Assembly: GCA_964434115.1 (NCBI GenBank) | Contig: CAYSSX010000005.1 | Span: forward strand, 95,063-159,062 | Length of the DNA: 64,000 nucleotides | Origin: an uncultured bacterium | Lineage (GTDB): Bacteria > Omnitrophota > Omnitrophia > Omnitrophales > Aquincolibacteriaceae | Direction: 5' to 3' | Shown: positions 3,443 to 38,300 of the stretch, piece after piece | Position numbering within the stretch: the first letter of the stretch is position 1 | How the letters are laid out: every line of letters starts with the position of its first letter | Position numbers and translations under genes: made by a program | Notes under the pieces: generated by a model | Database searches by the model: none | The model's input: the letters and a program-made list of their open reading frames with translations, nothing else | What the model was told of the DNA's origin: nothing

Positions 3443-3449
3443 AGGAGTC

Positions 3450-5411: not shown

Positions 5412-5496
5412 ACTTTACCTCCCCCGAAAACGGGACAGCTAAGACTGCCGCCGCAAATAAAGCGGGCAGTCCCAGCCCAACAAGAGGAGAAACTTT

Positions 5497-6102
<606 letters not shown>

Positions 6103-6129
6103 ACAAAAAGTTTTAAGGAATACAGCGGG

Positions 6130-6157
6130 GCGGGAGAAATCCTGTCCCGCTTTTTTT
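6130..6157 (+). terminator. rho-independent terminator after sodB
   Basis: GCGGGA / TCCCGC 6-bp GC stem with a 9-nt loop, followed by T7 (6151-6157). Confidence 0.7.
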
Positions 6158-6587
6158 ATGCCCGGGAACGGAGTTTCTTGATAACAGGAAGGGCCGTCTT
6201 TACAAATTCGCGGTCTTTGGGGTGGGTCAAATGTTTCGCCACGTCCTCGGGCTCAAACCATTTCAGGCCTGCAATGCTTCGGTCTTTCGGTTTTGTTTTT
6301 TTCTCGGACGTAAAAAAAAGAAAGATGTGCATGGTTTTAAGTTCGGCTAAATCGTCCTTGCCGTCTTTGCCGATTTTGTAACGCTTGTAACTGCCGAGTT
6401 CTTTCTTGAGTTCAAGCTTTGTAATTCCCGCCTCTTCATAAATCTCGCGGAGAGCAGCTTCCAGAGGAGTTTCTTTTCCCTCAAGATGGCCTTTGGGAAG
6501 CGACCAGACATTGCGCCGCTGTTCGACAAGAAGAACCTTGCCTTCATCATTCAGAATAATGCCGCCCGCGCTCTGTGTTTTCTTCAT
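6156..6587 (-). CDS. NUDIX hydrolase
   Basis: Nudix box GHLEGKETPLEAALREIYEEAGI is present. The start was chosen at MKKTQ (6587), 1 nt after the ClC stop. The ORF-track start at 6656 would overlap ClC. Confidence 0.85.
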   Translation of the reverse strand: MKKTQSAGGIILNDEGKVLLVEQRRNVWSLPKGHLEGKETPLEAALREIYEEAGITKLELKKELGSYKRYKIGKDGKDDLAELKTMHIFLFFTSEKKTKPKDRSIAGLKWFEPEDVAKHLTHPKDREFVKTALPVIKKLRSRA

Positions 6588-17532: not shown

Positions 17533-18078
17533 ATGAGAAAAAAGAGCGCCCCCCTCGCCGCGCTGGTCTTGAGTCTGCTGTTCCTGCAGTCTCCGGTAAA
17601 AACAGAGGCGGGACAGGAATTCCGGAGTTTTGAAACCATCCCTTCACCCGCGGCCGAAGAAAGAACCGCCGAAGACCTTGCCGCGGAAGGTTATCAGCGC
17701 GTTTCCACCGCGCAGAACATTTCCACTCCCATGGTCGAGAAAATGGTGTATGACCTTTTTGAATCGTGGAACTCTCACACGCTCGACCAGAAGCTGTCGC
17801 GGGACTTTCCGAATAAAAACCGTCTCAAGGAAGCGATTCAAACCGGCGTTCCCCGCCACGTAAAGCTTCAGGTGCTGTCTGTTCAAAATCCCCGCATCGT
17901 GGAACAGTATGTGCGTCCGCATCCGTCCGGTGACGGCACGTACCAGCTCCTCAGCAAAGTTTCCGTGCGTGTTCATTCGCAGATCGCGGCAAGCTCCAGC
18001 ATCCGGAGACAATTTCAGCGCGTCGACGGCGTCAGTGACTACCTTTTCCATGTGACCCAAAAGGTTAAAGCCGCATGA
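17533..18078 (+). CDS. secreted/periplasmic hypothetical protein
   Basis: The start was chosen at MRKKSAPLAALVLSLLFLQSPVKTEA (signal peptide). The ORF-track start at 17410 lies inside the preceding gene. The stop overlaps the next start (ATGA). Confidence 0.55.
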   Translation: MRKKSAPLAALVLSLLFLQSPVKTEAGQEFRSFETIPSPAAEERTAEDLAAEGYQRVSTAQNISTPMVEKMVYDLFESWNSHTLDQKLSRDFPNKNRLKEAIQTGVPRHVKLQVLSVQNPRIVEQYVRPHPSGDGTYQLLSKVSVRVHSQIAASSSIRRQFQRVDGVSDYLFHVTQKVKAA

Positions 18079-20321
18079 GGAAACGCTCTCTCGTTCTAGC
18101 TATGGCCTTGCTTCCGCTGGGAATTCCCTTTGCGCAAGCCTCACAGGCCGGGGACCTGGTAGACTCCTCGCTGGATTCCCTTACCGACTGGCACATCGCC
18201 GGGCAGAACACCACCCGTTATGATCTGTATGATGAGAACGGCTACAAGCCTTCTTCGGTTTACCCCTATGATGCCAGCCAGGTTTACAATGAAACCCGTT
18301 TGTCTTTTGACCGGCAGCTGTCTCAGTATGAGTCCCTGACTTTTTCCTCCGCCGGGCTTCTGAACGGCTCTCAATACCGCAGTTCGGAACAAGGCTGGCT
18401 TTTTGAAGATATTCGCGCAAGCTGGCAAAAGGGAGACGGCTTTGTTCCTTTTCGCGCGGACCTCGGCGATTTCACCGCCAACTTCAGCTACCGCACCATT
18501 CAGCAGAACATCAAAGGAACCCAGATTGAAATTCAGCCGGACCTTAAGATCGGCAATCTGGAACAGCGGCACTCCCTCATCGGGTTTGCCGGCAGTCAGC
18601 AGCAGGATTACCGGGACTATCAGCTGGACCGCAATACTTTCAGCGGCGGCTCATGGCTTGTGGACCTTGCCAAGTACGGCGTCTGGGCCTTTCACTTCGT
18701 GGATAACTTCCGGGAAAAGGACAACACCAACGGCTATTTAAAGGCCCGTCATCAGAACACCATGGGCCTGACCTTTGAGAAAATTTTCAATCTCGCTAAT
18801 CAGAGAATCGGCGTTGAAAGCGAAGTCGACCGCTTCGGCGGGGATTATGATTCCTTCACGGACCCTTCAGGCGTTGAGCAGGACAAATCAGGCATGGGGT
18901 ATTTCTTTAAATTAAACGGCGCGAGCGGAGACCTTTTTGATTACGGCTTCCGTTTTGAAGATTACGCCGATCACTTTCGTCCGAATGGCGGCGTGATCAG
19001 TTCCAACCGGCGCACCGTGGCTTTCAAACTCGGCGGCAATGTCTACAAACAGCTCCGGCTCGACACGCGCTACGAGGCCTTCCGCGACAATCTTTATTCC
19101 TTCAATCACGTGGACACAAGTTCAGGCGGCCTCTCGCTCGCCGGTCCGATTGAAAACAAATACCTCCGCGATCTGAACATTTATCTGGATGTTTTTCGCG
19201 AGAGCATCGACAGCGAAGACCGCTTTTATAATGTACGCACCTGGTCCTACGTGGGGCATATTAATTCCGCGATTTACAAACAGTGGAACGGCCACATTGG
19301 CGGCAATTTCCGGAACGCGGACGATGATGTTTATCAGTACACCTCCATCACGCGCGAATACACGGTGGATGCGGGACACCCCTTCTCTTACAAGGGCGTC
19401 ATGGGAGATGCCCGGGGCGGTATCGTCTACCGGGGCATGGGCGGCCCGAATGAAGGTTTTCAGGTCGGCCCCTTCTCTTCCGTTTCGGCCACAAAAAACC
19501 GCCACAGCGTCAACCTCAACACCAAGCTTCTTGTGGATGACAGCCGCTCCGAGTTCGGGCAGGACGTTTCTTCTTTCAGTTTCAGCGGCGGCTATTCTTA
19601 CACTTACGGTCCGCACCGCTTGGCTTTTGACTTCGATATGTTCAACCGGAATCCTTATGAGTACGCGGGCGCAACGGAGGATTACCGGCTTGGTTTTACC
19701 TATACCTTCAGCTTCGACAAACCCGTGGGTACCAACATCCGCGACTTCTCACTCCGGCGCGGCTACAGCGCCCCGGATTCCGTTGTGGAAAGAATCTGGG
19801 CGGAGACAGCCCCCCGGGAAATTCTTTTCCTCGAAGGCACGGCCCCGGGCAAGACCTTGCTGGAGGCAAAAGCTTTTCTGGAATCGCAGGGCCTCAAATC
19901 CTCGACGGCCCAAGGCCAGCTTCTTATCTATGAGGTCCGGATTTTTCACGATGTGGATTGGCGCCAGCGCCTTGTGATTGAGCATGATGGCGAGCACGTG
20001 CTGCACACGGCCGTGCTTTTGGATCTGGATCCGGGTCTGAATCCATCACGTTCTGAAGAAGCTTATGAGCGGGTGCGCGGGTTCCTGCTTAAGCGCTACG
20101 CGAACCCGTCGACGGAAATCCGCGAAGGCGAATTTGGCCCGGATTATTCGAGCCTGATTAATTCCGGGCGTCTTGTCCGTGTTACGGAATGGACCACTCC
20201 GGCTGGCAAACTCCGCTTCGGTCTTCCTCATCGTTTTGGCCAGGCTGCCCGCATGGAAATTCATTACGCTCCGGAATTGCCCGAACCCCGCGAATCGCGC
20301 TGGGGTCTTGAAGCTGTTTAA
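18075..20321 (+). CDS. outer-membrane beta-barrel protein (porin-like, 748 aa), hypothetical
   Basis: A signal peptide (ALLPLGIPFAQA) is present. The body is Gly/Tyr/Asn/Asp-rich with alternating amphipathic beta-strand character throughout. The C-terminal aromatic-rich segment is typical of OMPs. Confidence 0.6.
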   Translation: MRKRSLVLAMALLPLGIPFAQASQAGDLVDSSLDSLTDWHIAGQNTTRYDLYDENGYKPSSVYPYDASQVYNETRLSFDRQLSQYESLTFSSAGLLNGSQYRSSEQGWLFEDIRASWQKGDGFVPFRADLGDFTANFSYRTIQQNIKGTQIEIQPDLKIGNLEQRHSLIGFAGSQQQDYRDYQLDRNTFSGGSWLVDLAKYGVWAFHFVDNFREKDNTNGYLKARHQNTMGLTFEKIFNLANQRIGVESEVDRFGGDYDSFTDPSGVEQDKSGMGYFFKLNGASGDLFDYGFRFEDYADHFRPNGGVISSNRRTVAFKLGGNVYKQLRLDTRYEAFRDNLYSFNHVDTSSGGLSLAGPIENKYLRDLNIYLDVFRESIDSEDRFYNVRTWSYVGHINSAIYKQWNGHIGGNFRNADDDVYQYTSITREYTVDAGHPFSYKGVMGDARGGIVYRGMGGPNEGFQVGPFSSVSATKNRHSVNLNTKLLVDDSRSEFGQDVSSFSFSGGYSYTYGPHRLAFDFDMFNRNPYEYAGATEDYRLGFTYTFSFDKPVGTNIRDFSLRRGYSAPDSVVERIWAETAPREILFLEGTAPGKTLLEAKAFLESQGLKSSTAQGQLLIYEVRIFHDVDWRQRLVIEHDGEHVLHTAVLLDLDPGLNPSRSEEAYERVRGFLLKRYANPSTEIREGEFGPDYSSLINSGRLVRVTEWTTPAGKLRFGLPHRFGQAARMEIHYAPELPEPRESRWGLEAV

Positions 20322-20332
20322 GGGCTTGGTAA

Positions 20333-23300
20333 TTACGCGGAAGCGGCAAAGGCGAACTGGTTGAGGTAGCTCGCCGCAAGATCTGCAAGAAAAGGTTTCA
20401 CCTCGTAAAACACTCCCCGCTTTTCAATCCCGCTTTGAAAGAGAATCTGATCCGGATCATAAGACAGCGCCACGGCAAATGTTCCCGGACGGTCTTCTGA
20501 AACTGCAAAAAAACGGATCGTCTCCAGCGCGCTGGCGCTGAAGGAAGTCAAATCCCGGTCCCTTCTTGCAAAGGCCACAATCCCGTTTTCCCGGAATTGC
20601 GGGCCCAGTGACCGGAAAACGTCTTCTCCCCCGGCCTGCGTCCAGACAACATTCGGGAAGGATTTAAAAAGATCCTTAAGCGCGAGCACGCGTTCGTGTT
20701 CGGGCATAACATTGTGAATCACAAACCGGACATCACTGCGCTGGCTCACCGTAATCGCCGCTTCACGGACCTCTTCCGTTGTAAATGTCACGAGGTCACG
20801 GAAATCAATCATGGCCGCGCCCGGTTTTTTCACCGGTTTATAAAAACTTTCCAGGGAATTGTCCTGAAACCTCAGTTCGGACCGCGCCGGGAGAAAAGGC
20901 GCGATCCGGGGGTCATCAACAATAGAACTCAGCGTCGGTTTCGCCCTTCCCTTGGGCCACCCGAATTTCATGCCCAGCTGGTTAGGACTTGTGATCCCTC
21001 CGCCGGCCAGAGCGCGGTAGCGCGCCGCAAACTCCGGCGCTATTCCAAGACCCCAGAGAACTTCCGAAATCGAAAAAACTTTTTCCTGAAGGTACGCGTG
21101 ATTCTGAAAGGCTTTATTCTTCAGCCCGTTCAGATTCGTCCATCCGGCCGCATCCAGCCACGCGAGAATTTCCTGCTTTTTTCCTTCCGGATTTTTTGCA
21201 TCCAGAACTTTTAGAAGACCGCCTGCCGGAATTTCGATTTTTGAAAAATCAACCTTTGCGGACTGCGCCATTCTTTTATAAGCCGGCGTTGTCACGCCTA
21301 GGCCTTCGGCCGCGTAATCAAGATGCCCAAGATGCGCGGCATAAGACTCCTCAATTTTCTTCTTCGCCTCTTCCTGAATGCCCAGAAGTTTGACCAGTTC
21401 ATCGTAACCGCGCGTCACCACCCAGGAAACTTCCGGATGCGCATCTGTAAATTTCTTCAAATTCCAGGCATATGTTTCTTCAAGCTCCTGAAGGACTTCT
21501 TCCTTCGTCATCGCAAGCGCTTTCAAAAGGTCAAAGGCCGAAGCTGTCTCAGGCTGTTTCTTTTTAAATTGCGCCAGCTCCTTCAGGATCCGTTCAATGT
21601 TCGCTTTGGCGGAGGGCGTGTCGAAACCAAAGGATTCTCCGACGCGAATCATAAGACCGCCGTATTTCGCTTTTCGATCCGACGCCTCATAAAGAAAATC
21701 CTCCGCGAGGTTAAGCCCCCACAGCAGCCGCGCGTAAGAGAAGCCCGGGCTTTTGAGAAATTGAAACCCCGGCTTCGCGGCAAGAAATTTTCTGAACTCC
21801 ACAAGATTGAAGGTTGTCCCGTTCTTTTCTTCGGCAAAGACCGCATAGAGTTCCTTGCGGATCGTTTGCGCGGGTTTCTGCCCGGTTTTTTCAAGCCTTT
21901 GAAGCAGGGTGCCCGGAGGAATTTCTATTTTTTCGAAATCAATCCCAAGGCTGGCCGTTTGATGATCATAGGTCTTTGGCGGAAGCCCCATCAAGCGGGC
22001 AGCTTCCCTTTTTCTTCCCACGGACTGCTGATAAGCCTGAATATAGGGGGACCTGATTTTATTCGCCCCTTCCTCGAGGCGTTTACCGCGCGCCTGGGCC
22101 GCCATCCGCACCGAGACATCCAGGGACCTAAGCGCTTCGGCATTCCACGCATTCAACAGACGAAAGGTCTTCATGTCTTTCTTAAGGATCCATGCCGCGA
22201 TCAAATACTCTGACGCCTGATCAAAGAGAATTCCGAGATCGCGGTAAACCGACTGCGCGGTTGACTCGCCCATTTCCCTCCGGAGAATTTCCCGGATATT
22301 TTCAAAATCAAGAATCATGCTCTCAAGGAGTTCCATTTTCCTTATTTTCTTCTGCGCCTCGCTGCCGGACCCGGGCATCTTCTCAGTGCCGTGCAAACGG
22401 TCAAGGTCACGGTAGATGTCTGCGGGGGCCGCCCATTCCTTTGCCCTCAGTTCAGAACGGAACGAAGGGTGATACTTTTGAATCTTCAAATCCTGAAATC
22501 CTTCGCCCATGACATCCACGCCCACAAGGACAAGTCCCGGGTTTTCAATTGCTGACCTTTTAAGCTTCAAGATCACGGATTGTCTTTCAGGTTCTTGCAT
22601 CCACGCCCACACATTGTTAAAACTGATAATCCCCGCTCCGGAAAATAATTTCTGCAGTTCTGCGGACTCGGCATTTCCTGTCACGACACGGATGGCGGCC
22701 GAAAAATCCTGCGGGCGGGCTTGCGATGCTTGCATCAGTTCAAAAGCAGAACGCATCACCTCTGCCGGGGCACCCCGGCTTGCGGCAACAACATCAAGGA
22801 TATCCAGTCCTCCGCCCGAAACCTTGCTCCTGGACCTTTGGGCCATTTCCTCAAATTTTTCATAGCCCACAATTTCATAGGTCAGATCACTGTAGCCGGG
22901 TACCCTCTTTATTCTTTGGAGAATCCAGGCCCAGAAGAAAAGCTCCTGCCCAAAAGACGGCCCCATCACAACCACAGCAAGATGCTTTGTCTTGAGCGCA
23001 TCAATCTGCCGGAGGACGAGGTTGAGGTACCAGGACTCATGCGACATGAACCGGTTTGCCAGCTCAGAGTAGGCGTTGAATTTCTTATAAGCAGCCCCTA
23101 GATCCTGCCGGCGGGTATAGCGGAACATCGCGAGCAGAAGCTCGTCTCCGCGAAGCAGGTCCGAAACCACTCCTGTGAAGCTTCCCCGGTATTGATCCCG
23201 GAAAAGACGCGTCACCGAAAAATGCGTCATAAAATCGAAAAATTCTTCGCCGCTGACTTTTCCTCCCGCGGCTTTTTCAAGAACCTTATAAATCGCAGAA

Positions 23301-26300
23301 AAGTCCTTCATATATGAACCGATATGATCCTCAAAAAGAAGCACCTCGGGAATTCCCGGTTTTCGCCACTCCTCCGCGGCCCGCAAGTCCCACTCGCTCT
23401 CAGCCCTAAGCTCGGCCCGCTGCCCCGGCTCAGCGGCAGCCGCCGATTTTTTCAGAAGTACTTTCCAGCCGATCAAAAAAGGCGTCTGCTCCGGCTGAGG
23501 GACTTCAAAACGCTCTAATTCTAAAACCGTGAAGCCGTGGGTCTCGAAAAGGGTTTTTAATTTTTCTTTCTCCGGATCTCCGAAAGCAGCCGCGTGTTCG
23601 AGGTAATATTTAAAAAGGCTTATATGGCTGCTGATGTCGCCGCGCATCTCTTCAAGGGCGGGAATGGCTTTTTCTCCAGCAATCAAGATCAGTTCCATCT
23701 GATCGATGACCTCCTGAACGGTATCGGTCTCCTTTCCGCTTGCGCTGCGAACAGTTTCTTGAAGCGCGCTATGAGCCGCGAGAACCCTTTCAGAAGTCTC
23801 AGGACCCGGGTCCAGGGTATAGTCCAGAAGGGCTTGAACAACCCCCGATTTCTGAATTTCCTCCATCTCCCACAGCCTTTCGCGGACGGATTCCGCGATA
23901 ATGGAGCCGCTGTGGTGAATCACCAGGGCCGCGGGCGCGCCCGGCTTCAAAACCTTATTAAGGGCTTCAAGGGCACGGCCGGGATCCTGCACATACTCCA
24001 GTCCATAAGAGGCTGTTGCGGCATCAAAAAACTCCGGCGGGAAAGCTTCTGCAGTATTTTCAATTCGGGTCTGATGAAAATAAATTCCCTGTCCGGCGGG
24101 AATGAAGGAAGGATCCAGAGGAGCGCTGTCCACTCCATGAAATTCGGCTGAGCTCCCGGAAATTTTCAGGGCCTCGGCGGCTCCGATCCTGGGAACAAAC
24201 AGGCGGCCCGTGCCGAGATCCAGAAACTTTGAACCCGGTTTGTTCTGAAGCACACCGGAAAAAAATTCTCCGAAAAACTTTTCAACCGCGGCCCTTTCCT
24301 CTTCAAAGCCTTCCCCAAGAATTGAAATCTGCCCTTCTTCGCGCCACTGCTCAGGCCAGACATTTCCGGACTCACTCTCGGTGCTCCTCAATTCTGAGCG
24401 GTGATTTTTTTTGAAATAGTCTTTGGCCGGTGCTTTGGCAGTCTCGTCCGAGCCCGGTGCGGAAACCCGGTTTTGGATCGCCGTCAGGATGAAGGATTCT
24501 ACGTCCTGGATTTCAACCGGCGAAATCAAAGAGCGGACCCGGACCTCGTCGCTTGCCGCATCTTTCCACATCAAAGCTTGCCAGCCCTTATGAACAGCGG
24601 ACTCAATACCAAACCAGTCGTGGAGATTCGTATCCAGATTCTCAAGCGTTGTCCTTAAAATCACGGGTTGAGCCCCACCTAAAACATCAAGCTGCAGGGC
24701 AAACGCCCCTTCATGGGGCCGCAGGTGAACAGCGCGAATAGTTTTAAGATCCGGAATCTCAGGTTGTGAAATACCGCTGTCTTCAGGGATCTCAAGTTTA
24801 AAGATGAGTTTTTTCAAAGACGGCGAGAACGGCTGGCTGATGGCGACCAGGTTGTAGCCCTCGTCTTTCAAAAGCAGCTGCGTGTGCAAATCCTGTTCAT
24901 CCACAGGAATCACAATTGAAGTGAGGCTGTCCTCTTCCGCAATTTCTCGAAGCTGCTGGAGCAAACGTCTGTCAACACCCCGAAAGTTCAACGCTGGAAG
25001 AATTCCCATACGCTCCACCATAAGACGCTGTCCTATCTGGTGATAAGCCAAATAGCCAGCGGAATTATGTTCATGTTCCGCGGTCAAAACACGGCCCTGT
25101 TCATTTTGCACAAAATCAAGAAATGCACTGAACGTCCAGGGCTCTTTCCGATCCACGCGCGCTGTTTCAATTTTGGATTCGAACAGATGAAAATCTTCGA
25201 CCTTATGATCCCGGACAGTGACTTCAAGCTGGCTGTAATCCCCGCCTTTGAGGCGAAGCCCGAGAAGGCCAGCAACTGCTTCAACTTTTTCCGCAGGGAG
25301 TCCAGAAGTTTTTGAAAATGCAAAGGCCGTCAAAGGCAGCTCGCGCCCTGATCCTTCAGGGAGAAGTTCCAGCATTCTCTCCTTTAGTTTTTGCTCGCGG
25401 ATGGGCATGAGAATGTGATCGGCATCGTAGGCCGGAATTTCCGGATAACGTGCAACCGCTTCGGCTGTCACCAGCTTTTCAAGCGGCTGCCGGAGAGCCC
25501 AGGCATGCATCTGATTACGCGGGTCCCTGACCCTGTCATGGCGGGCGGTTTCTTCAAAATCGATTTCTTCCGGATCTTGCCGGTATTCGAAAAGATACGC
25601 ATCCTCCCCTGTGTCTTCGAAATAGTCCCGGCTGACTTGCACAGCCGAAAAACCCTGAGAGCGCCAGAAAATCTGGGCGCGCAAATCGCTTTCACGGACG
25701 ACCACGCGCAGCCAATTACGCTGCTGGGCGGAAAGCTTTCCTTTTAACTTCTCAACCATTTCATGCCCAATTTTCCGGCCGCGGGTTTCCGGCTCTACTG
25801 CAAAATTTAAAATCTCGAGGCCCTTGCGATGAAGTGAATAGACCATGAACCCCTTCACAAAGTCGCCAATCTCCGCGACCATTCCGATGACGTTGCGCTG
25901 CCGAAGGGCCCGAAGAAAATCTTCGTCCGTCCAGGGCATCGAGAAACTTTTCCCTTCAATGTCAAGGACCTCAGGCATGTCCCGCCGGATCATCCAGCGG
26001 ATATGAAGCCCCTTAACGGGATCACGGCTGACATAAGGTCCTTCTTCTGGGAGTGTCCGGCTGGGAGCCGCGGGTTTCTCTGTCACAAGTGAAACTCCGT
26101 AATAGGCGAGTATCTTTTCAGCCTCTTTCGGGTTTAAACCAAATTCCTCGGCCTGGCTGATAAATGCCGTCATAGTTACCGGGGTGCGCTCCAGGCTTTG
26201 AGCCCATCGGCGGAAGTGTTTTTCACCTTCGGGAATTTTACGGATTGTTTTCTCCAGCAAGTAAAGGCTTTTACCGTCCTTCAACTCATACTCATCCAAA

Positions 26301-29300
26301 AACTTAAATCCGGCACGGGTACGAAAATTTCTTCCGCCGTCCGCGAAGTCTTCAACGGGAAGTTCCCACAACATCCGGTTAGGAGAAGCTGTTTTCGCTG
26401 CGTCTTGATCTTGAAGGTGTTCAGTGAACCGCCGAAGCATGGCGCCGGGAACAGTTCGCGCCGAAAAGGCGGCATCCAGAATCTCATACGTTTCTCCGCT
26501 TTCAGAATAAGCCAAATATCCGGTCAGCCGGCCGTAAGAACGAGCTTCCAGAATTTTTCCTCCACGATTCAGAAAATCCCTGAAGGCCTCACGGGTCCAT
26601 TCAAACCGCGATTGCTCTTTCGCAAAACTTGCAAGATCTTCGACTGAAGAGAGATCCGCCGCGCGAATCCGGGTTTTATAAGCTGGCTGTTTCACTGTTT
26701 TCGAGTCTCTCGTCCACGGGCTGACTTCCTTGCGCTTAAGGCTTTCCAGAACGCCTTTCGGGCTCGCGGCCATCTTGAGCTCCCGCTGCTCTTCCATGTA
26801 CTTTTTCATTTCACGGAGTTTGCGAAGAAATCTTGCGGCCTGTTCCTTGGATTGAAGCAGGTTCGCATCGATTTCCGGATGCCAAAAAACAAATTCGGTC
26901 ACAGACTTTTTCTGCCAGCTTTCATCCTGCTCCGAAAGCGAAACAAACCCTGCTTTCTTGAAAAACTCGCTCACGGGTTCGTTTTGCACGGGCACGTCTG
27001 CGGAAACAAATGAAAGGTTTTCCTTGTTCATGATCCACTTAATATGTTCCAGCATCTGGCTGCCGATGTAAGAGAAGCGGTGCGCGGGATCGACGGCCAT
27101 TTTCTGAATGTCGATGCGCTCTTCAAAAATCTGATACACGATATAACCCACCACACGGCCTTCTTCATCCACAGCCACAGTTTTAAAACGGTTAAAGCCT
27201 TCTTCCACTTCATCCATGAGTCCCCCGCCGGAGTCCTCGCGAGTCTCATCTTCTTTGGGTTTTTCCTGAAATCCCCAAGGCGACCAGCGGTCAGGAACCC
27301 GAAAGGCTGCGCTTTCAATCCGCATCACATCATCAAGGTCTTCATCGTTCATATCCCGTATCAAAAGGGCCTCGGCCGGATAACCGCCGCGCGGCTTGAG
27401 ATTATGCTCTCCGAGAATGCGCCGGACCATCAGAGCACTGAGCCCGGGATATTTTCCCCGGATGTCTTCAAAATTAAGGGAAAGCTCTGCTCCGGGCGTC
27501 TGGCGCAAAGCCCAGGCCCGAAGAAAAGTCATGGGTGATGGAACATACTCTTCGGGAATTTCTCCGCCTTCTTCAGGACGCCCGCCCCAAAGCGGTGAGT
27601 AATAATCGAGTGTGTAAAAATCTTTCTTTCCAGAAGACCTCGATTTTTGGACATGCTGATGCTTGGACTTTCCGAAATACTTTAAATCGCGGAAAGCAGC
27701 TTCGAGAGTCAGCACTTCTTTGCCGTCGTCACGGAGTTTTTTCTGGGCCATGCGCCAAAGCACCCGCAAGAGCATTCGCGGGCCTTGGGCAGGATCAACA
27801 GCATATTTCAAGACTTGCATGCCGGACTCTGTAGGCTGATACACAAGATAGGCTGCGATGGAACCGTTTCTAAGCGCAACGATCGCCCGCGCCCCGTAGG
27901 CCGTCTCCAGATGTTCCCAAAACGTTTCGCCCCAGGGATTTTTCAGGCGTGCATCAAAATCAAAAAACGTTTTCAACTGTCCTTCAGGAAGTTCCCGGAT
28001 CTCATAATTCTGTCCCCGGGCTGTCACGGCATGCGTTCTCGTGACCTCATAATTTTCATGCGTGCCTTGATTGGCCCAGTAAGGCCATGTTTTGCCGCCG
28101 TCCAGGGAGTACTGAAAAGTCAGTGTTCCGGAAAAATCACTTGGCAGCGTTACGCCAACCCTATATGTGCCGTTTTCAAAATTGTCGTACAGCGTCATCT
28201 CAAGGTCATTTTTCCACTCCACGTCTTTTTCGGTTTTGTAATGAACACGGGCCTTAATCCATTTCTCAGGATTTTCGAGAATGCGGTCGGTGTGGATATT
28301 GAAATAAAACGCCACCGGGGTCTTGTCTGTGGCTTCGATTTTCCGGCCTTGAACTTCCTGCGCTCCGGCCATGACGGCAAATTCGCCATACCCCTTCCCT
28401 GCAGGATGAACAGGCCCTTCTTCGAGCGGGGCCCTCAATTCGCTGCGGCCCTTATCCTGATCTCTGGGATCAAGAGACCGGAATTTCGTCACAAGCAATT
28501 TGGGAGAATCAGCAGGAGACTGCCCGGTAATTTGGTTGTACGTCTGCGCGGTTGAAACCCCTGAAATGCTATGGACGGGCTGCTGCCGCGAATAAGGGGG
28601 AACTGTTTTCGTCAAAGCGCCTCGATCATGGACGGTGATCATCACGACGTCCTGATCCCCAGAGGGCAGGGAGCCGAGACCGATTTCAACATCAAATGTT
28701 TTTTCCGGATACGCAAAGGCCAGATAATCCGCCGCCGCCTCAAGAGCTTCGTCCGCACCCTCTTCTGTTTTTACATAATAGATTTCATCTGCCTTCACAT
28801 CCGGATGCGCACGGACAGCGATGGCTCCGGCAGGACCCGGCGTGTGCACGGTGGTTAAATTCATACCCTGTGTTCCCTGCTGAAGAAAACGCGTGACCAT
28901 GATCGGTTTCCGGGGATCAGGCTGAGAGCCCTCAATCAGCGACCGCGCTTTTGAGAGAGTCTCTTCCCGCCCAAGGTTCTCTACAGGGGAAACTTCCGGA
29001 TAAGGGACATACTGTTCCAGGGAATGCTCCATGCCCCGCAGTTCGCTGCGGACCCCGTGCTCGCCGTTCAAAGGAAGAACATGGGTTTCTTTGAATTCGC
29101 GGAAAACATCCGCCCCGCCGGACGTGATGAAGGAATTTTCCAGCACCTCCTGCACTAAACGGAATCCATCGCGGACCTGCGCGAGATAGCCTTCCGGTTC
29201 ACGTCTGTACATGGCATGTTCAAGGCCCATCAAGTAACGCTGCCACGCGTGGTCAATCACATTCAGCTGGCGCTCGCGGGTCCATAGTCTCTCCTGCTTT

Positions 29301-32300
29301 GTCAGCTCAAGGAAAAGATCGCGGGCTTCATAAAAAACACGCCGGTAGGGATCCAGCTCGTCGTCATAAAAAAGAATCTGCCTGCGGCTTTGCCGGAGGA
29401 TCTCTTCGCTGCGGGCCTGGTCCCCGAAAAGACGGAACGATTCGTCTTCCTCTGATAAAAACCAGTAAACCTCACCTGGATCGCCGCGCCGTGCCGCACG
29501 CAGCTTTGCCTGGTCATCAATCCTCCGCGAACGGCTTTTACGCGTCATGATCACGGCAAGGCCGCCGAGCGCGCGGACATCGTCTTCGATTTTAATATTC
29601 ACGCCACGGCCCGCGACGCTGGTCGCGATTGTAATCTGGCCTTTTTTACCGGCATTCGCGACCGCCAGAACTTCTTCTTCCAGATCCAGCCCGTCGATCA
29701 CGGCCGCATCCAGAGATTCCTCTTCAAGCGCCCGGGCAAGAGCGCGCGCGTCCGAAATGCGTTTGACAAAAACAAGCACGGGCCTGCCGGCCGCGTGAAG
29801 TTCCGCGATTTTTCCGGCGATCAAACGGTCTTTCTCGTTTTTCGTGCGCGTCACGACCGGCGGATGTTCTACCAGCAGAGTCGGCGACTGCTTGGGAATG
29901 CTGATATAAGTCAGTCCGTAGGTTTTTTCAATTTCCGCGGCGTCATTGCCCATGGTTCCCGTGATAATGGAAAATCGGCTCCGCCGCTGCATCATGCGGT
30001 AGTAATTCTGGTACGTAATCAATCCGTTGTGAAAGGTGGGCTCAAGCAGTTCAGCCTCGTTTCCATGATAGGTTTCTTTCGCCGCGATAAACTGATGCCG
30101 GTGATTGCCGAGCACATGATGGGATTTAACTCTTCCCGTGAATTCATCCACCAGTTCAATTTTTCCGTTTCTCAAAATATAATCGCCGTCCCGTTCATTA
30201 AAATGCTTGGTCAGAAGCGCCTGGCGGAGCAGGTTTCCCAGTTCATGCTCACGCATCAGTTCAGTGAGCTTGAGCGTGTCAAACTGCAGGTATTTTAAAT
30301 AGTGGATCGCGGCCAGAAGCCCGTGCCGGTGAAGCTCCACCGATTCTTTTACGGGATCAATCTCGTAATCCGTGTCTTTGGAAAGGGCAAGCGCTGTTTG
30401 ATAAAGCATGAGGTAATCAACCTTTCTCAAACGGGCGGCTGAAAGAGCGTCAGGAGAAGCCAGAATCAGTGGATAACCCGATTCATCCAGAAGGGTCGCG
30501 TCCCCCTCATCAAGAATCACAATGGAGGGACCTCCGGGAGGCTGCACCTTCTGATCCAGCCGCTGTTTTCTCTGATCATAAAGAAAATCAAAAACAAACA
30601 AGTCTTTGACTCCATAAACAATGTCGCTGCGGTAAACGTCTTTCTTTTGAACTGGCTGACGATGGCCTTGGTTATCTTTGTAAGAGGAGGATAAATGCTT
30701 CTTTCCGGGACGCCTGGAGCCGCTTGACGCGGGATCAAAAAGATAAGGCTGGTCGGCTTCCGTCATAACACCGACGCGCATGCCAAGAAGGTCGAAGACA
30801 GGCCCCATTTCCTGGGCATCACGCCCGGCAAGGTAACTGTTAAACGTGTGAATGTGCGCAGCCCGGCCGCTCAGCGCGTTAATATACGCCGCCATCGCGA
30901 TAGAAAGCGTCTTGCCTTCTCCGGGCTCTTTCTCAACAGCGCTGCCGCGGTGAATCGCGATAGCCGCGGCCACTTGTTCATCCGACGGATACTGTCCGAT
31001 CCTGAAACGCGCAGCCGACTTAAAGACAGCGGCGGCCTCTGAAAAAATCGAATCCACAGTTTCACCGGCCGAGAGTCTTTCTCTGAAAGCTTCTGTCGCG
31101 GCCCGGAAATCCGCTTCTTTTTGAAAGCGCCCTTCACGGCGGTCTTCGTTTTCACGCTGAGTAATTTTAGCGGCAAGGTGCCAGATTTCAGCACGGCCAT
31201 CCGGCGCGACACCCAAAACTCTTTTAAGGTTTTTAAGGATTTCCGTATCCCGGACAAGATCAAAACGTGCTCCCAGGATATTCCTGATTTCTTCCGGGCT
31301 GAAGGCGAGCTTCACCTCTTCAGCAAACTTTCTGAGAAGCACTTCGGGAGTTTCTCCGCGAAGCATTTCAAATTCAGATTCCTCAACAAGATCATGCATA
31401 GTCCTGTAAGCAATCCCCGTTTTCCGGGTCGTTTCGCGCTGGTTACCCGCATGCAAAATGAGTGCTGAGATCGCATAGGCACGTTTTAGCTTTGCGAGAG
31501 TCGTCAATTTGAAGTCCCGTGGGAGCTCATGGCTGAATGAATCCTGAGGCAAACGGGCTTTGAGATACCGGGACAGCTTGGAACGGCTGATCCCGAGAAT
31601 TTTCACCGCGTCCGTCTGAACTCCGCGCGCATAGGTCATTACATCCCGGATATAATCTTTCTCCCTTTCGGCCCAGCTCCGGATAACCTGTTCGTCCGAA
31701 ATACCGGAGCGAAGTTCGGAGCGTACAGCTTCGCTTTGAGGATCGTCGCCGGTAATAACGGTCCACATGCCGGATTCTTCCTGAACTTTGTCCGCGAACT
31801 CTTCGAACTCGCGCCGGACTTGCGATTTGATTTGAAAAATATCGATCCACAGAACTGCGGCCGTACCCCATGCCAAAAACTCAATGAGCAAGCCGATCCT
31901 TCCCGCAGCCGGACCGAAAAGAAGGCTGAGTGCGGCTGTAAGAAGCGCCAGCACTGCGGTCTTTTTGTACGAAATCGAAAACCTTGCATGCTTGGCAAGC
32001 CATGGCCAGCGCTTAAAAAGATCGTTAACCCCTTTGAGCTCCGAAAGAAAATCCGCGGCAAGGGTCTGATCAATCACTGCCGTCAAGTAAGGGAAAGTAC
32101 GTGCGTCGGAACGGGGGTTAGAAATCGTCACCCGGACCTGATGATTCCACGGCACAACAAAATCAAGGCCCGCGTACTGTCCGGAAATTTCAAAGGCATT
32201 CCGGCTGTCTTCCGGTGACCAGGAGCGCACAGTTTCGCTCTTCCGGTAGCCGCGCACAATGAGACGGGTGCGCGAAAGAATTCTCTCCAAAGCCTCTCTG

Positions 32301-35300
32301 GCGAACTCTTCGCGGAAAAGATTCTGGTAAACGGCAGTCATGGCAAGAAAATGATCCCGGACATGGACTTTTGAAACTTCGGGAAAGTCTTCTTCCCAAA
32401 CCTGCCAGGACCGCAAAACACCCCGCTCGAGATTTTCTTTGATTTTCGCCCAGCTCTGCGTAACGCCGCTGTCAGAGGCAATCCAGTCCCTGAGAATCAA
32501 GCCTCCATTTTCGACATGAAAAGATGTTTCAAAAACATCGAGAAAGGCTTCGACGTTTCGGAAGCCCTCTTCCCGGGACACGTTCATTGCACTTCTCAAA
32601 ATTTTCCAGACGGCTTCATTTTCTTTCGCAGCCGCTTCATAACGTGCTTCAGCCTGCCGGGCCGTTTCATGATAGAGACGCGGTTCCTGCTTCCTGAGCG
32701 ACTCCGTCAAATAGTCTTCCGCGTAACCGCTGAAATCACGGAGTTCTGAGCGATCAAACGTCTCACCGCCTGCGGCCGCTTCGGGGAATGATTCGATTTC
32801 TGCAAGCAGGAGTTCGGGAAAGTTCAGCGGGTGCCCCTGAACTTTCTCGCTGCGAAGGGGCTTCCAGTGAGTTTTCACGATAAGCTGAATGCGTGTTTTG
32901 GGTTCCGTTTCCTCGCGGTAGCGGGCCAGTATTTCCCGCGCACGTTCCGATATCGCTGCCGCCGCCAGGGTTTCTTCATAATCAAGAGCGCCCGGAACAT
33001 CCTCTTCCGAAAGGGCCTGAATAAAAGCCGCTGCGATCATGCTTTCATATTTTCCAAACTTGGGAAGCAGACCGTCTGAATCAGAAAAACCGACCACGAG
33101 ATCGATATCCGAATCACGCCCCAGTTCAGGAGACACAAGCTGCTTGAGGGAGGCGCCCTGAACTCGTCCTCCGACCCACACCGCCTGAACCGGGTAAACC
33201 GGAAGCCCGGCCCCGCGCGCGGAATCCGCGTAAAGCTGAAGAGCCTTTGCGGACACGCGCCGAATCCCCCGGAATGTTCTTTTGTAGTTTTCCGCTTTCT
33301 CAGGCGTGATGGCGCCCGCGCTAAGGGCTTCCTCCACCCGCCGTTCATTCACGCTCACCACATCTTCATATGTTCTGATTTCCCGGTAGCGCCCAAAAGG
33401 CTCGTTGGTGCGCAGTTCGGAGCGGCTTTCTGAAATCCGATTGTCTTCAACAAGGGCAACCTTCTGCCCCTCCGTTGAAAAAAGGCGGCGGACAAGTTCT
33501 GCTTTTTTCCATTCACGGGGAACCAGCCGAACTTCCTGAACAGCCCAATCCCTGGGAATGGCCATCCCGCGGTAAGTTTTGTGTTCAAGATCAATCACCC
33601 AGATCTTGCTCCTGTGAATATCCACAGCAGCATAAATTTGCCCATACAGCCACCGGACGTTCTGAAGCCACTCTCCCAACTGAGCCGGGCGGGAGACGCC
33701 GGGCATTCCGTTCAGAGTGATTTCGCGCACGGGCTCAAATTTGCTGTCAAAGACCTGGAACTTTCCATCGCGTGTACTGGTCACCAAATAGTGGTTGTTC
33801 CCGATTTTTCTAAATCCATGCGGGCTTGAAAAACCGCTTAGGACTTTCAAGGTTTTCCCTGAGGCTTTGTCAACCACAAGGGTTTCGCCCCGATGGAAAA
33901 GAGAAATCAAAATCGTGTTGGAATCAAGAGCCATCGCGCTGTTCAAATGCACCGCTCTTTGACGCGTAGGAATGCCGAATTCCCCCCAGGTGGAAGGGTC
34001 TTTAACCCAAATAACCTCTCTGTGTTCCGCTTCAAGCTTCCGGGCTTCTTCTTGTGAACGGGTTAAAAAATTTCCAAACATCGACTGGTTGTAACCATGT
34101 TCCCAGGCGTTCCATTCCCAAACCACACGGTCACGATAGGTGTCAATTTCATAAACCGCATCAAAGCCGGTTGAAGCAGCGAGAAGGTATCGTCCGTCCG
34201 GAGAAAATTGAACCGTATGAATGTGTGCAAACCAGGGGTAAGTGTAAATTTTTGTGCGGCCCGTTTTGCGATTCAAAAGAGTAATCGTGTTGTTGCCCCC
34301 GACCGCCATCCGTGAACCGGAAAAATCCACATCGTGCGGCTCAAGAGCACGCTCTGACCAGAACGAACTTGCTTCGTCCATGCTGTCATTTTTCAGAGAA
34401 ACGGCGAGGATCCGGCCCTCTTTGTAAGGCCTCGACGCTGCCCCTCCTATCACTTGAGGTCCGGGTTGAAGCATGGATTGCAAGGCCCGCTCATCCGTTG
34501 CGGACTGTTCCATGCCCTTAACCGTCACAATAACGTTTTCATCCCGCGCAAGGCCGTTGTCGTATTGAAAACCGGAAAGCTGTTCTGGAATACCCGCCCG
34601 GAGCTCTGAGCGGACAGAATCATCCTCTTCCCCGTCATAAATTTTAAGAGCTGAGACGGGGAGATCAGGTTGTTCGGACACTCTCTCCGGCTCCTCTCCG
34701 GGAATAAAAAGCTGGGGCTTTTTTGGGGAATGTTCTTTCCATTTTTGAACCACTCTTTCGGCTCCGCTCATCAGAAGCCCTGCCGTAACAGCGATTAATC
34801 CGGCGCCTATTTCCTGCGCCAGGCTTAAAGACTTTCCCGCTGCGACTTGCGCGGCGGAAGCAAAAGTTAAAAAGGCCGCGGCATTAAGAAGGAAAAAACC
34901 TGCGCGCTTGATTCTTCCTTCAGCAACGGCAATCACAAAAAAGGCGCTCATCAAAAGCTGCATGCCGGCAATAAACTCTTGATGCTTTGCGGGCAGAAAC
35001 TGCGCGAACACTTGCCCGGCTTTTAAAGCCGTGAACGCGGCTCCTCCCTGCACCAGGAACCGCACCGTTTCCTGAAAACCGCTTTCTTCCTCATCGCCGG
35101 GTTCTTCCGGAGCGGTTCTCAGTTCCGAACGGACGCGGGGAATCAACAGCTTCACTTTTAATCCCTGCTTGTGCTTGATTTTTGAAACGCCTGTTTCCAT
35201 CCACGGACGCCCAATAATTTCACCTTCAATTCCAAAAATAGGCAGTGCAAAATGTTCACGCGTCCAGCGGTTGAGACTGCGGACCCAAACCAGAGAAGCA

Positions 35301-38300
35301 AACCAGCCCGAAAAGTACCTTTCACTTTTCTTGTCATACTGCACAATAACTTCCCCGCCGAGAATCCGCCGGATCACCGCGTCAATCGCATTGTGATAAC
35401 CGTGTTTGCGGACCCTGCCAAATTCATCAGGATATTCTTCGCCCATGATCGACCGCCGCACACCTTCCGCCCGGGAGGTCAACGCGCCGCCGTCCCGGAT
35501 AATGAATTGAACATTCTTAGGATCATCATCCAGCCGGTAAAAAAACATGGCGCCCATGGGGTCCACGTGCCGGATATTGGCAATCAGCTCCGAGAAAACC
35601 GGCGTCAGCTGGCCCGCCTTAAAAGAATCGCCCGGCCGGACAGAAAAATCGGGGACGTCCGATCCATACCGCTCGCGGAAGATTTTTTTCCCTTCTTTTG
35701 TGACAAGCTCTCCTTCAATCCCGGCATGATAAATAAACAGGTCTGTTGTGAGAGTTTTCAACTGGCTGAGCCGTTCCGACTCGGCAGCCACCGCTTCGTC
35801 GAGAATGGCGAGCAGCCCTTGATCAAACTCCGCGGCGGCTTTCATGTAGTTCGGCGTTCCCATCGGATGAGCCCTCAGCGTGCGGTCTTTTAAAGCTTCG
35901 ATAGCGGGGCCCATGCTGTGCGTCTTGCTTCGGTACCAGTGTTTCAAGAGCTTGGACACGATTTTGTCCGCACGCCTTTCGGGACTGGGCTCTTCCGTTT
36001 CTTCAAAGGGTGATTCATCCATTTCCGCGTCCGGATCAACGCGGAGTGCGGAGTGGGCCTGCTTACCCAAAGCGGCGTCATGAAGTTCGCGGCTAAAAGC
36101 ACCCGAACGGATTTTTTCATCAATGTCTCTCAACACTTCAATATTTGTGCTAAACCATCCGTAAACATTGCCATTACGGTCAATAATCGCCAGGGACTGC
36201 TCCAGCGGATCCACGGCCGATAAATCATAAAGATGGCGTTCCGACAGTTTTTCCGGGCGCACCATCCAGGTCATCATGTCAAGGACATGGCGTCTTGCCA
36301 TTTCAGGAATGGCCTGGATCTCTTCTTCCGTGAGCGCCTGGTTTTTTTGATACCGCTCGACTTCCTGCCGGAGTCCCTGAAGATTGAATGTCCGGTCGTC
36401 CGTTGTGATTTTAAAAATGCCTTTGAAAAAATCATAAATGCGGACTTCTTTTCGAAGATGGTCCCAGTCAAACACGGCCTTAACCTGGTCCCCTTCATAC
36501 GTCATGTTCCCGGGATGGAAATCGCCATGAACCAGAGTCTGAGGAAGACGGGCATAAACAGGCGGCGGAAGATTGAGATTTAAAAGGGAGATCTGTTCAA
36601 GGAGAAAGCTGGCGTTCTGCAGAAAAAATCTTTCCCCGCGCGTCAACACAGCGCTGGGATCGGCCTGTTTTTGAACCAGCCTTGCCTGAAGCTGCTTGAT
36701 GCGTTCTTTCTGGTTTTCAAAATCCAGAATGGAAGGGCGGGTACGCTTTCCCGTTACTTGAAAATCCCGCAGGGTTTTATGCATCGCAGCTAAGACGTCG
36801 ATGGAATTTTCAAACTGCTTCGTGTTCAAGGTCTCAGGCGTAAGATTTTGGCCTTCAACAAAATGATAAAGCAGGTAGATTTTCCCGTTTGCGGCTTCTA
36901 CAAAATAGCGGTCTTCATCAAATTCCCCTGCGGGTTTTGTCGTCGGCACCAAGTCCGCGGCCGGAATCCCTTTGCGCACCAGTTCCCGCACCACGGACAC
37001 TTCAAAACGAGCGCCTTCTGTCAGCTCGGGATAAAGCACACGGGTCAGCGGTTTAAGAATGTACTTGCCCTTGCTTGTGGTGACCTGAAGAGATTTGCCG
37101 TGCTCCCCGATCCCCCCGGCTGTGGGGCTTATTTTCTGAACTTCTCCGAGGGCATACTGCTTCAGGACTTCTGGCGCAGCTTCCAGATCTGCGCGGGCCA
37201 TCTCGGCCTGCCAGCGCGCGCTTCGCACATCTTCCCTGTCCGGATCTTCTGCCGTTTCTTCCATTCGAAGCTCGGCCCTGGCCGCTGTTTGACCGGAGTC
37301 ATTTTTTCTCGTCTTACGGAACCGGAGATCCGCTTCACGAGCCATTTCGGGCAGATCGCCGGATAAATTCCGGACAATTCCGCTCAGGCTGTTCATTTCT
37401 TCCGCAATCCGTTGACGCACCTCGGGTCGGCCTGAATTTTCCATTTCAAACAACGTGATAAGGCGGGCCATGCCCGAAGCAATACCCGAAGCAAAAATGC
37501 CTGACCCTGCGGCCATGCCCTGCCGGTAATATTCCTGGTGTCTTTCATCAAGGTGCGTGACCCGGGGCACGGCCACGGCATAACCCATACCCAGGTTTTC
37601 CAGAATGCTCCGGATGCGGTCCGAATGAAATCCTCCATACACCAGCACCGCGGTTTTCTCATCCGGAATTTTTGAGAATTCTTCCACAGCTTCACGGATT
37701 TTTTCGTCGCGTCTCATCGCGGTCTCATAAAAACCGCGCGCGCACTGAAGGCTTTCTTCCCACCGGCGCGGCAGCACAATCGTTTTCTTTCCTTCGCGCG
37801 CCAAAAAGGCGGCAAGGTCCTGAGTCTTGAAAGCGTCGAGGGTTTCCTTCGAGGCCTGGTATTCGGCGGGAGTGACTTCGAGTTTGTTCAAACGGTGAAA
37901 AAGGCGGACGGCTTTGAAATACTCATACAGTTGTTTTTCCCGAGGACTCTCAAGCAGGGCTTCGGCAAGGCCGTCTTCGAGCCGTTTCATTTCCAGAAGA
38001 AGCTCTGAGGCCCCCCGCTGATTCACGCGGTCTAAAAGATCGGCTTGCTTGGTGTCCAGCGCCCGCAGCATTTCAGCAGAGGCGGGGTATAAAATTTCAA
38101 ATTGTCCCCCTGCCGGCGAAGCAAGGTAAAGGCGGCAGACCTCCCTCAGATAAACCGCGAAGTCTGTTTTGGTTTCTTCAAAACGTTTCTTCGCACGCAG
38201 AAAATCCTGAAGCTTTTTCAAACCGAGAGAGCGTGTAAGATTCTCCAGCTCTCTTTCCACAGCCAGGAAATCCTCTTCCACATCTCCTTGAACACGCACC

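Follow-up and report, generated by a model that had tools for sequence, protein, structure and literature searches.

The middle of a giant protein encoded by an uncultured bacterium of the Omnitrophota (family Aquincolibacteriaceae) contains a SecA-family ATPase that is complete in its motor, clamp and finger but lacks other parts of SecA. The protein is 6,170 amino acids (aa) long and is the product of an 18.5 kb open reading frame (ORF) with a TTG start, located at 20333..38845 on the minus strand of the 64,000-nucleotide (nt) stretch analysed here, hereafter called the window (contig CAYSSX010000005.1, positions 95,063 to 159,062). All features of the giant protein are on this strand, and nucleotide positions are those of the window. 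The SecA-family motor (residues 2559-3250 of the giant ORF) forms, together with an upstream helix-turn-helix (HTH) region, a cassette of 891 aa (aa 2380-3270, 29036..31708) that aligned end to end with the corresponding cassettes of two orthologues, P0056 and P0057. This copy of SecA is genuine and apparently working.

A SecA-family ATPase is embedded in the giant protein

Pfam searches detected three SecA-specific domains in the cassette. SecA_DEAD scored 186.2 bits against a gathering cut-off of 24.6 (E=1.1e-54) and was matched from position 17 to 289 of its 290 profile positions; SecA_PP_bind, nested in the SecA_DEAD match, scored 54.8 bits against 23.5 (E=1.6e-14, profile positions 7-109 of 110); P-loop_SecA scored 112.8 bits (E=2.1e-32). 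The generic Helicase_C model gave a weak match in the same cassette (8e-5). NCBIfam models of both SecA and SecA2 matched with E-values of 1e-70 to 1e-120, and the top sequence match in the PDB was T. maritima SecA (2.8e-87). An AlphaFold2 model of aa 2550-3270, built from 21 sequences, had a predicted local distance difference test score (pLDDT) of 82.8 and a predicted TM-score (pTM) of 0.83. When this model was compared with the PDB using Foldseek, ranks 1-36 were all SecA and the first non-SecA match appeared at 2.6e-7; the top TM-scores were all to SecY-bound SecA (3din_A, 0.81; 6itc_A, 0.79; 5eul_A, 0.78). Collectively, these data indicated that the family identity, the domain order and the fold are those of a SecA-family ATPase.

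A first-pass annotation, made from the sequence alone, had proposed a SecA-family motor inside the giant protein, and the Pfam, NCBIfam, PDB and Foldseek results, all SecA-specific, bore this out. The motor peptides it quoted (GEGKT, LDEGD, TGTMG, AGRGVN and RRIDDQAKLRAARRGDPG) were all present in the minus-strand ORF. The Walker A peptide, given as EPGEGKTL at nt 30905-30922, was placed slightly short: these nucleotides encode GEGKTL, and the full EPGEGKTL reaches nt 30928. We rejected the assignment to a generic superfamily 2 (SF2) helicase, since the preprotein cross-linking domain (PPXD) and the profile and structure matches are all SecA-specific; the similarity extended beyond generic SF2 motifs, to a PPXD matched at 1.6e-14 and to motif VI.

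The motor scored well below the cut-offs that define canonical members of the family. It reached 401, 370 and 359 bits with the housekeeping SecA models TIGR00963, PRK12904 and PRK09200, whose cut-offs are 862, 814 and 800, and of the 789 model positions only 19-552 were matched. Similarly, it reached 350, 261, 354 and 237 bits with the SecA2 models TIGR03714, TIGR04221, TIGR04397 and NF012136, whose cut-offs are 930, 725, 1,085 and 1,100.

The motor, clamp and finger are retained whereas the wing and the extremities of SecA are missing

The first nucleotide-binding domain (NBD1, SecA_DEAD) spans aa 2559-2972 (29930..31171), as defined by Pfam, the AlphaFold2 model and alignment. It contains the Walker A sequence GEGKT (aa 2642-2646, nt 30908-30922), the Walker B sequence LDEGD (aa 2778-2782, nt 30500-30514) and a variable insertion at aa ~2709-2725 that was modelled with low confidence. 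The PPXD, identified by Pfam, is inserted in NBD1 at aa 2812-2920 (30086..30412), and TGTMG is found at aa 2962-2966. The second nucleotide-binding domain (NBD2, P-loop_SecA by Pfam; aa 2995-3144, 29414..29863) carries AGRGVN at aa 3078-3083, including the GRG arginine R3080, and motif VI, RRIDDQAKLRAARRGDPG, at aa 3107-3124 (nt 29474-29527).

Downstream of NBD2, the AlphaFold2 model and a MAFFT alignment to SecA both pointed to a helical scaffold long helix of 42 residues (aa 3143-3184, 29294..29419), aligned on the pattern ...YDD..D.YR..Y..R.... The following segment, aa 3187-3241 (29123..29287), is a helical hairpin in the model and was aligned by MAFFT with the two-helix finger: helix 1 carries IDHAWQRYL and leads to a tip, M-Y3213-R-R-E-P (nt 29186-29212), which precedes helix 2. 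The sequence IDHAWQRYL...MYRREP aligned with the canonical LD..W..HL...GYAQKDP, so that the tip Y-RRE-P is the counterpart of the canonical Y-xQ(K/R)DP. As judged from the model and the alignment, a minimal scaffold and a two-helix finger with its tip tyrosine are kept, and the residues of the finger tip are conserved.

Other parts of SecA had no counterpart. No significant Pfam match to SecA_SW was found in the motor, and the helical wing domain is absent between the scaffold helix and the finger, where approximately 100 wing columns of the MAFFT alignment were gaps. The columns of the C-terminal tail and of the CxCxSGxKxKxC zinc finger were also gaps in the motor, and the joint of about 30 aa between NBD2 and the scaffold was absent from the alignment. 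In the profile matches, SecA residues before about position 17-19 were not represented; the missing start of the motor includes the lipid-binding helix known from the N-terminus of canonical SecA. The motor had initially been described as complete, with a recommendation to look for the PPXD and the scaffold and wing subdomains. Completeness holds for NBD1, PPXD and NBD2, and the PPXD and a minimal scaffold with its finger were recovered; it does not extend to the wing, the joint, the tail with its zinc finger or the N-terminal residues.

The residues expected to bind and hydrolyse ATP were invariant in the alignment of eight members of the clade described below. These are the Walker A GKT (K2645), the Walker B D2779-E2780 and the GRG arginine R3080, as well as R3108, D3110, Q3112 and R3116 of motif VI. 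Comparison of the cassette with its orthologue encoded by locus L001 gave a non-synonymous divergence (dN) of 0.19 and a saturated synonymous divergence (dS) of 1.75, corresponding to a dN/dS of ~0.11; the value for the motor alone was 0.09. The cassette is therefore clearly under purifying selection. Retention of the two-helix finger argues that the pushing of a polypeptide has been conserved, beyond ATP hydrolysis.

The motor belongs to a clade of SecA-like motors found in large proteins

Relatives were gathered by exhaustive HMMER search. The closest orthologues, from metagenomes, showed 72-77% identity; they include P0056 (4,033 aa, 73% identity) and P0057 (2,465 aa, 72%), whose HTH and SecA cassettes were 73% and 72% identical to that of the window. 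More distant motors sit in proteins of 940-5,684 aa. Among the motor relatives, P0059, P0060, P0069 and loci L002 and L003 are labelled Candidatus Omnitrophota. A profile search of genome contigs, dominated by canonical Pelagibacter SecA, yielded three loci of the family, two in Omnitrophota/Omnitrophica metagenome-assembled genomes (MAGs) and one in a MAG labelled deltaproteobacterium; a metagenome profile search added loci L082, L083 and L085.

A neighbour-joining tree was built from 82 motors, a sample in which canonical Omnitrophota SecAs were not specifically included. The window motor fell in a clade of 15 members that was separated from 67 SecAs of mostly ordinary length in 98 of 100 bootstraps, and the motors of this clade come from proteins of 940-5,684 aa. 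An HTFN signature was considered as a definition of the clade and rejected, its carriers not being monophyletic alone (34/100 bootstraps). We also rejected an assembly chimera as the origin of the fusion, the same cassette order being found in independent metagenomes (P0056/L001, L082 and P0057).

Three of these loci have features of their own. P0056 (L001 6001-18102) carries Sigma70_r2, r3 and r4 in a single cassette of the chain that includes the SecA-like motor. The metagenomic relative L083 has an uninterrupted frame of at least 4,284 aa. In L002 (Omnitrophota MAG nzgw329), the SecA-bearing ORF P0058 is directly preceded by a kinase-like cassette whose frame is broken by a single in-frame stop at 1785-1787 (...GDLHFGNILMDPF*LLANRD...). 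Because the coverage of this MAG is ~2.5x, the stop is likely to be a sequencing error, a pseudogene or recoding being the alternatives.

Fis-type HTH elements are associated with the motor

The presence of Fis-like HTH elements before the motor, also part of the first-pass annotation, was upheld by an HTH_8 match upstream (E=1.4e-6). This first element, which also matched the Fis model, covers aa 2392-2429 (31559..31672). A second Fis-like HTH, recognised by eye and under the Pfam threshold, is found at aa ~2464-2504 (31334..31456, ALILHAGNQRETTRKTGIAYRTMHDLV), and the equivalent segment is conserved in P0006. Every member of the clade that was examined has HTH_8 elements either before or after its motor, up to five of them significant.

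The same association occurs outside giant proteins. The free-standing proteins P0062-P0066 (1,119-1,822 aa) combine HTH_8 arrays, again with up to five significant copies, with a wing-less SecA-like motor; P0062 comes from an Omnitrophica MAG (locus L003, 7604-12463). The pairing of HTH array and motor in these proteins indicates that it is a conserved unit.

R-S-E-x-R motifs punctuate the giant protein and delimit cassettes that come and go as units

The SecA cassette is bordered by RSELR on both sides, at aa 2375-2379 (31709..31723) on the N-terminal side and at aa 3266-3270 (29036..29050) on the C-terminal side, where these copies had originally been noticed. The giant ORF contains ten RSELR copies, starting at aa 1239, 1412, 1808, 2032, 2375, 3266, 3467, 4816, 5463 and 5988, against 0.02 expected from its composition, together with two RAELR copies at aa 523 and 5143. 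R[S/A]ELR divides the ORF into 13 cassettes. The motif usually precedes S, A or T and is followed by acid-rich sequence. The two copies that were modelled with AlphaFold, RAELR at aa 523-527 and RSELR at aa 3266-3270, lie in low-confidence linkers, with a pLDDT below 50 for the latter. All five RSELR codons vary synonymously among copies, indicating that the motif is selected at the amino-acid level. Elsewhere in the window, the motif was absent from other ORFs and frames, save for one RAELR in an unrelated 205-aa ORF. An origin of the repeat at the DNA or RNA level, as a recombination site or an RNA element, was therefore rejected.

When the three orthologues were cut at R[S/A]E-x-R, the resulting cassettes aligned end to end. 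They share a core made of the N-terminal module, the hairpin cassette, the HTH and SecA cassette, a 201-aa cassette and the C-terminal module, and enzyme cassettes have been gained or lost between them as whole units. In the window protein, P0056, P0057 and P0058, a copy of the motif stands at each border of the SecA cassette. In P0061, which is N-terminally truncated, the motif directly follows the motor, and in P0060 and P0006, which are both C-terminally truncated, it precedes the motor; other members are punctuated by it as well. The fourth residue of the motif is mostly the same throughout a chain but changes from one lineage to another: the window protein, P0056, P0057 and L082 have L, P0058/L002 and L083 have M, P0061 has A and P0060 has V. 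P0069 has a different border motif, [KR]R[KR]SPSG, present nine times. The punctuation motif is not universal among SecA-bearing large proteins, since it was not found in P0059, P0067, P0068 and P0080.

The R-S-E-x-R motifs are candidate sites for processing or recognition of a polyprotein. Literature searches for RSELR returned only papers on the varSelRF software, and a search combining Omnitrophota and polyprotein returned none. In the sections consulted and the term searches made of two preprints on Omnitrophota giant proteins, we found no description of the border motif, the HTH pairing or the retained finger (West-Roberts 2023, bioRxiv 10.1101/2023.11.21.568195; and a 2026 study, 10.64898/2026.06.07.730766). 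The 2023 study suspected proteolytic processing, stated that the cleavage points were unknown and reported that this lack had blocked interpretation as well as structure prediction of giant proteins (10.1101/2023.11.21.568195). R-S-E-x-R punctuation combined with cassette-wise evolution would provide the first concrete candidates for such processing sites. A strict, lineage-specific border motif offers testable cut sites and a rational division of giant proteins into units, and we consider that the larger potential value of this work lies in the punctuation and in the gain and loss of whole cassettes.

Layout of the giant protein and of its locus

The database copy of the giant protein, P0055, is 100% identical and has 6,161 aa, its start being placed at the ATG at nt 38818. 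Recognisable domains in the giant ORF, as detected by Pfam, include an APH-type kinase fold, three GNAT matches and an S-adenosylmethionine (SAM)-dependent methyltransferase match within the cassette at aa 4821-5467. WD40 repeat matches at aa 1417-1812 were weak and all under the Pfam cut-offs, so that a beta-propeller in this region is possible. No protease domain was found in the giant protein by Pfam. Permissive Pfam scans returned nothing credible for the N-terminal 530 aa, aa 816-1243 and aa 3472-3815, nor for the cassettes at aa 1813-2036, 2037-2379, 3271-3471, 5468-5992 and 5993-6170; PDB sequence searches likewise returned nothing credible for the cassettes at aa 2037-2379, 3271-3471 and 5993-6170.

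A Kyte-Doolittle scan located few hydrophobic segments, namely a stretch at aa 26-44, a bundle near 1262-1368 and a hairpin spanning 2297-2337. We read the two internal groups as probable helical hairpins or bundles. The second of them, a predicted two-helix transmembrane hairpin (nt 31835-31957), ends the cassette upstream of the motor (aa 2037-2379, 31709..32737), which matches no known family and adjoins the SecA cassette in all three orthologues. The hairpin ends ~40 aa before RSELR and 43 aa upstream of the SecA cassette, as placed by the Kyte-Doolittle scan only. Read with the positive-inside rule, the giant protein seems to be a string of enzyme cassettes of cytoplasmic type that is tethered to the membrane, with most of its length, the motor included, in the cytoplasm. 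The host had first been taken for a surface or secreted protein. This does not fit its recognisable cassettes, which are cofactor-dependent enzymes of cytoplasmic type (an APH-like kinase, GNATs and SAM methyltransferases), or its few hydrophobic segments.

The two ends of the protein are of interest in their own right. A signal-anchor-like helix at aa 26-44 is followed by an N-terminal module (aa ~61-445, window ~37511-38665) that belongs to no Pfam family and contains the invariant residues D83-A84-H85, E113, E151 and Y152; it is possibly a hydrolase or a protease. Its homologues with taxonomic names are all from Omnitrophota (including P0207, P0212 and P0235), and some stand alone as proteins of 431-507 aa. 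P0067 and P0068, both of which lack R-S-E-x-R, likewise carry a distant version of the module at their head. At the other end, the last seven residues (window 20336-20356) form a conserved, hydrophobic, alanine-ending tail, which reads ...FAFAASA in the giant protein, P0056 and P0057. Other versions are ...LVILASA, ...LVFASHA and ...AVQWSA, and the conserved tail is also present in P0213, P0221 and the L002 ORF. This tail is reminiscent of a C-terminal degron or a sorting tag.

The flanking genes are ordinary chromosomal genes, including a nuo operon, sdhA, a CLC channel, PFK and MraW; no rRNA or tRNA marker was found in the 64-kb window. On the plus strand, an ORF of 748 aa (18075-20321) with a signal-like sequence at its N-terminus runs towards the giant gene and stops 12 nt from its 3' end. 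It has no Pfam match and no counterpart beside the L001 orthologue.

A proposed dedicated accessory SecA and alternative explanations

On balance, we favour the view that the cassette is a functional SecA-family translocation ATPase, held at the membrane as a dedicated accessory SecA whose clients are segments or cassettes of the giant protein family. The transmembrane hairpin located ~40 aa upstream would hold the motor at the membrane, replacing the missing lipid-binding helix and wing, and the cassette would dock on SecYEG. The PPXD clamp would then close on a polypeptide, and ATP would drive the finger to push it. The clients would most likely be parts of the giant protein family, either extracytoplasmic segments or cassettes released at R-S-E-x-R, originating from the same or from a sister giant molecule, and a separate housekeeping SecA would handle general secretory proteins. 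This proposal is supported by the position of the hairpin cassette, which adjoins the motor in all three orthologues, and by the presence of the SecA cassette in the conserved core, whereas the enzyme cassettes are variable. It is also supported by published work: the same architecture has been reported in Omnitrophota, where self-export of the giant protein was already hypothesised (10.1101/2023.11.21.568195), and reduced SecA2 paralogues export specific substrates (PMC7503281).

Several points weigh against an export role. The translocase activity of the clade members is predicted from sequences and models. Hydropathy and the positive-inside rule place only an N-terminal domain of ~400 aa outside the cytoplasm; this domain is translated ~2,000 residues before the motor, so that its export in cis while synthesis is under way is implausible. 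Those cassettes that can be recognised depend on ATP, acetyl-CoA or SAM and lack signal peptides, and no second SecA-like region was found in the 64-kb window. In solved complexes the wing domain touches SecY, and a motor without it might bind SecY more weakly (PMC7503281). Finally, an export role leaves the constant association with a Fis-type HTH array unexplained.

This association is the starting point of an alternative that we consider improbable, in which a SecA-derived motor has been re-used as a nucleic-acid-associated or regulatory ATPase and the Fis-type HTH array targets DNA. For a gene whose transcription, translation and membrane insertion coincide, such a protein might, for example, act in tethering or remodelling at the interface between chromosome and membrane. 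HTH_8 elements accompany the motor in every clade member examined, in up to five significant copies, the close orthologue P0056 has a sigma-70 cassette in its chain, and SecA itself belongs to the SF2 helicase-like superfamily. However, purifying selection has kept all the parts that serve specifically to handle a polypeptide, namely the clamp (PPXD), the scaffold helix and the finger, tip tyrosine included; no nucleic-acid helicase accessory domains were found in the motor, and structural matches to helicases in the Foldseek search were at least 30 orders of magnitude weaker than those to SecA. We regard as very unlikely that the SecA-like region is an inactive, decayed fusion retained as a structural spacer only. 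Its low scores with every SecA and SecA2 equivalog model, far under the trusted thresholds (at best 401 bits where 862 are required), the missing wing, tail and N-terminal helix and the very long branches in published trees (10.1101/2023.11.21.568195) are what a relic could look like, but the motifs for ATP binding and hydrolysis are all invariant in the clade, dN/dS is ~0.1, the predicted fold is confident and complete, and the family keeps the cassette in its conserved core.

An alternative that we hold as a lesser but serious possibility is that a protease cuts the giant protein at R-S-E-x-R and frees the 891-aa cassette as a soluble or peripheral SecA2-like protein that acts in trans, its clients being further released cassettes or different proteins, with its embedding serving co-expression only. 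RSELR flanks the cassette exactly, in segments with a pLDDT below 50. The cassette aligns end to end among orthologues in which cassettes come and go as whole units, and the motif, with ten copies against 0.02 expected and variable codons, is selected at the amino-acid level. The identity of the fourth residue, uniform within a protein but varying between lineages (L, M, A or V), would be expected if it co-evolved with a recognition factor. Stand-alone proteins made of an HTH array and a motor exist (P0062-P0066, 1,119-1,822 aa), and the 2023 study suspected cleavage without having cleavage points (10.1101/2023.11.21.568195). On the other side, cleavage at R-S-E-x-R is a sequence-based prediction, Pfam detected no protease domain in the giant protein, the orthologous loci have no neighbouring gene in common, and a released cassette would forfeit its only obvious membrane tether. 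Release of the cassette overlaps in part with the accessory SecA that we favour and does not exclude it.

For the giant protein as a whole, we tentatively envisage that R-S-E-x-R are processing sites used by a lineage-specific protease and that the chain is a polyprotein or a MARTX-like precursor, in which the core exports, unfolds or delivers an enzyme payload; we would not put this above a possibility. The core would then include the N-terminal module, an EreA/ChaN/TIKI/RRSP-like hydrolase, and the C-terminal module ending in ...FAFAASA. The payload would comprise the kinase, the propeller, the GNATs, the methyltransferases and, in relatives, the sigma factor, and the fourth residue of the motif would co-evolve with the protease.

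Comparison with known SecA systems and giant proteins

The window motor shares with the housekeeping SecA of E. coli, B. subtilis and T. maritima (3din, 1tf5 and 2fsf) the NBD1-PPXD-NBD2 order, the Walker A and B sequences, the GRG arginine, motif VI, the scaffold helix and a two-helix finger tipped by tyrosine, and its predicted fold superposes on SecY-bound SecA with a TM-score of 0.81. Identity is about 31-33%. Unlike housekeeping SecA, the motor is not a free-standing gene and has an HTH extension at its N-terminus, while the N-terminal amphipathic helix, the NBD2-scaffold joint, the wing and the tail with its zinc finger of the housekeeping enzyme are all lacking.

SecA2 of the Mycobacterium/Corynebacterium type (4uaq) provides the closest functional analogy. 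It is a paralogue with a reduced wing and no tail that coexists with the housekeeping SecA and has restricted clients; the wing is shortened in the SecA2 of these two genera, SecA2 proteins in general are tail-less, and specific substrates are exported (PMC7503281). The window motor differs in that its wing is wholly absent rather than shortened, in being embedded and HTH-bearing, and in coming from Omnitrophota and not from Gram-positive bacteria. The stand-alone proteins P0062-P0066 resemble the cassette in the pairing of HTH_8 and motor, in a scaffold remnant and in weak SecA_SW matches to the first third of this profile, and P0062-P0065 belong to the same motor clade. They differ from it as free genes of 1,119-1,822 aa without R-S-E-x-R, and P0066 falls outside the 15-member clade.

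At the level of the whole chain, MARTX toxins offer a parallel: they are long chains of effector or enzyme cassettes with conserved ends, a swappable middle and short linkers that serve as processing sites. The giant protein, in which no RTX repeats or cysteine protease domain were detected, differs from them by its membrane hairpins and its own SecA-like motor.

The nearest comparison is with the giant proteins of Omnitrophota. Most of them contain a divergent SecA_DEAD and PPXD without scaffold or wing; these SecA-like domains come after transmembrane anchors and form a long-branch clade, in genomes that also encode normal SecA, SecYEG, SecB and SecD (10.1101/2023.11.21.568195). The 2026 study lists a PF07517 architecture cluster and "multi-enzyme" giants rich in methyltransferases and GNATs (10.64898/2026.06.07.730766). 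The fusion of a SecA motor to a larger protein, initially regarded as highly unusual, is therefore a layout already reported in most Omnitrophota giants (10.1101/2023.11.21.568195; also 10.64898/2026.06.07.730766). Similarly to these giants, the window protein combines SecA_DEAD and SecA_PP_bind with no Pfam match to the scaffold or the wing, in a very long ORF with transmembrane anchors upstream and with methyltransferase, GNAT and kinase-type domains alongside; its motor lies in a separate long-branch clade and has relatives in Candidatus Omnitrophota. Unlike the giants as described in the sections consulted, it keeps the scaffold helix and the finger, includes an HTH_8 array in the unit and has R-S-E-x-R brackets. 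At 6,170 aa it is also much smaller than those giants, which exceed 30,000 aa in the 2023 study and reach 10,000 aa or more in the 2026 one. Since it belongs to a 98%-supported clade of such motors, the window motor is a further case of the giant-protein SecA class already described, and its 891-aa cassette, which bears on the role of these motors, is far more tractable than giants of 40,000-147,000 aa.

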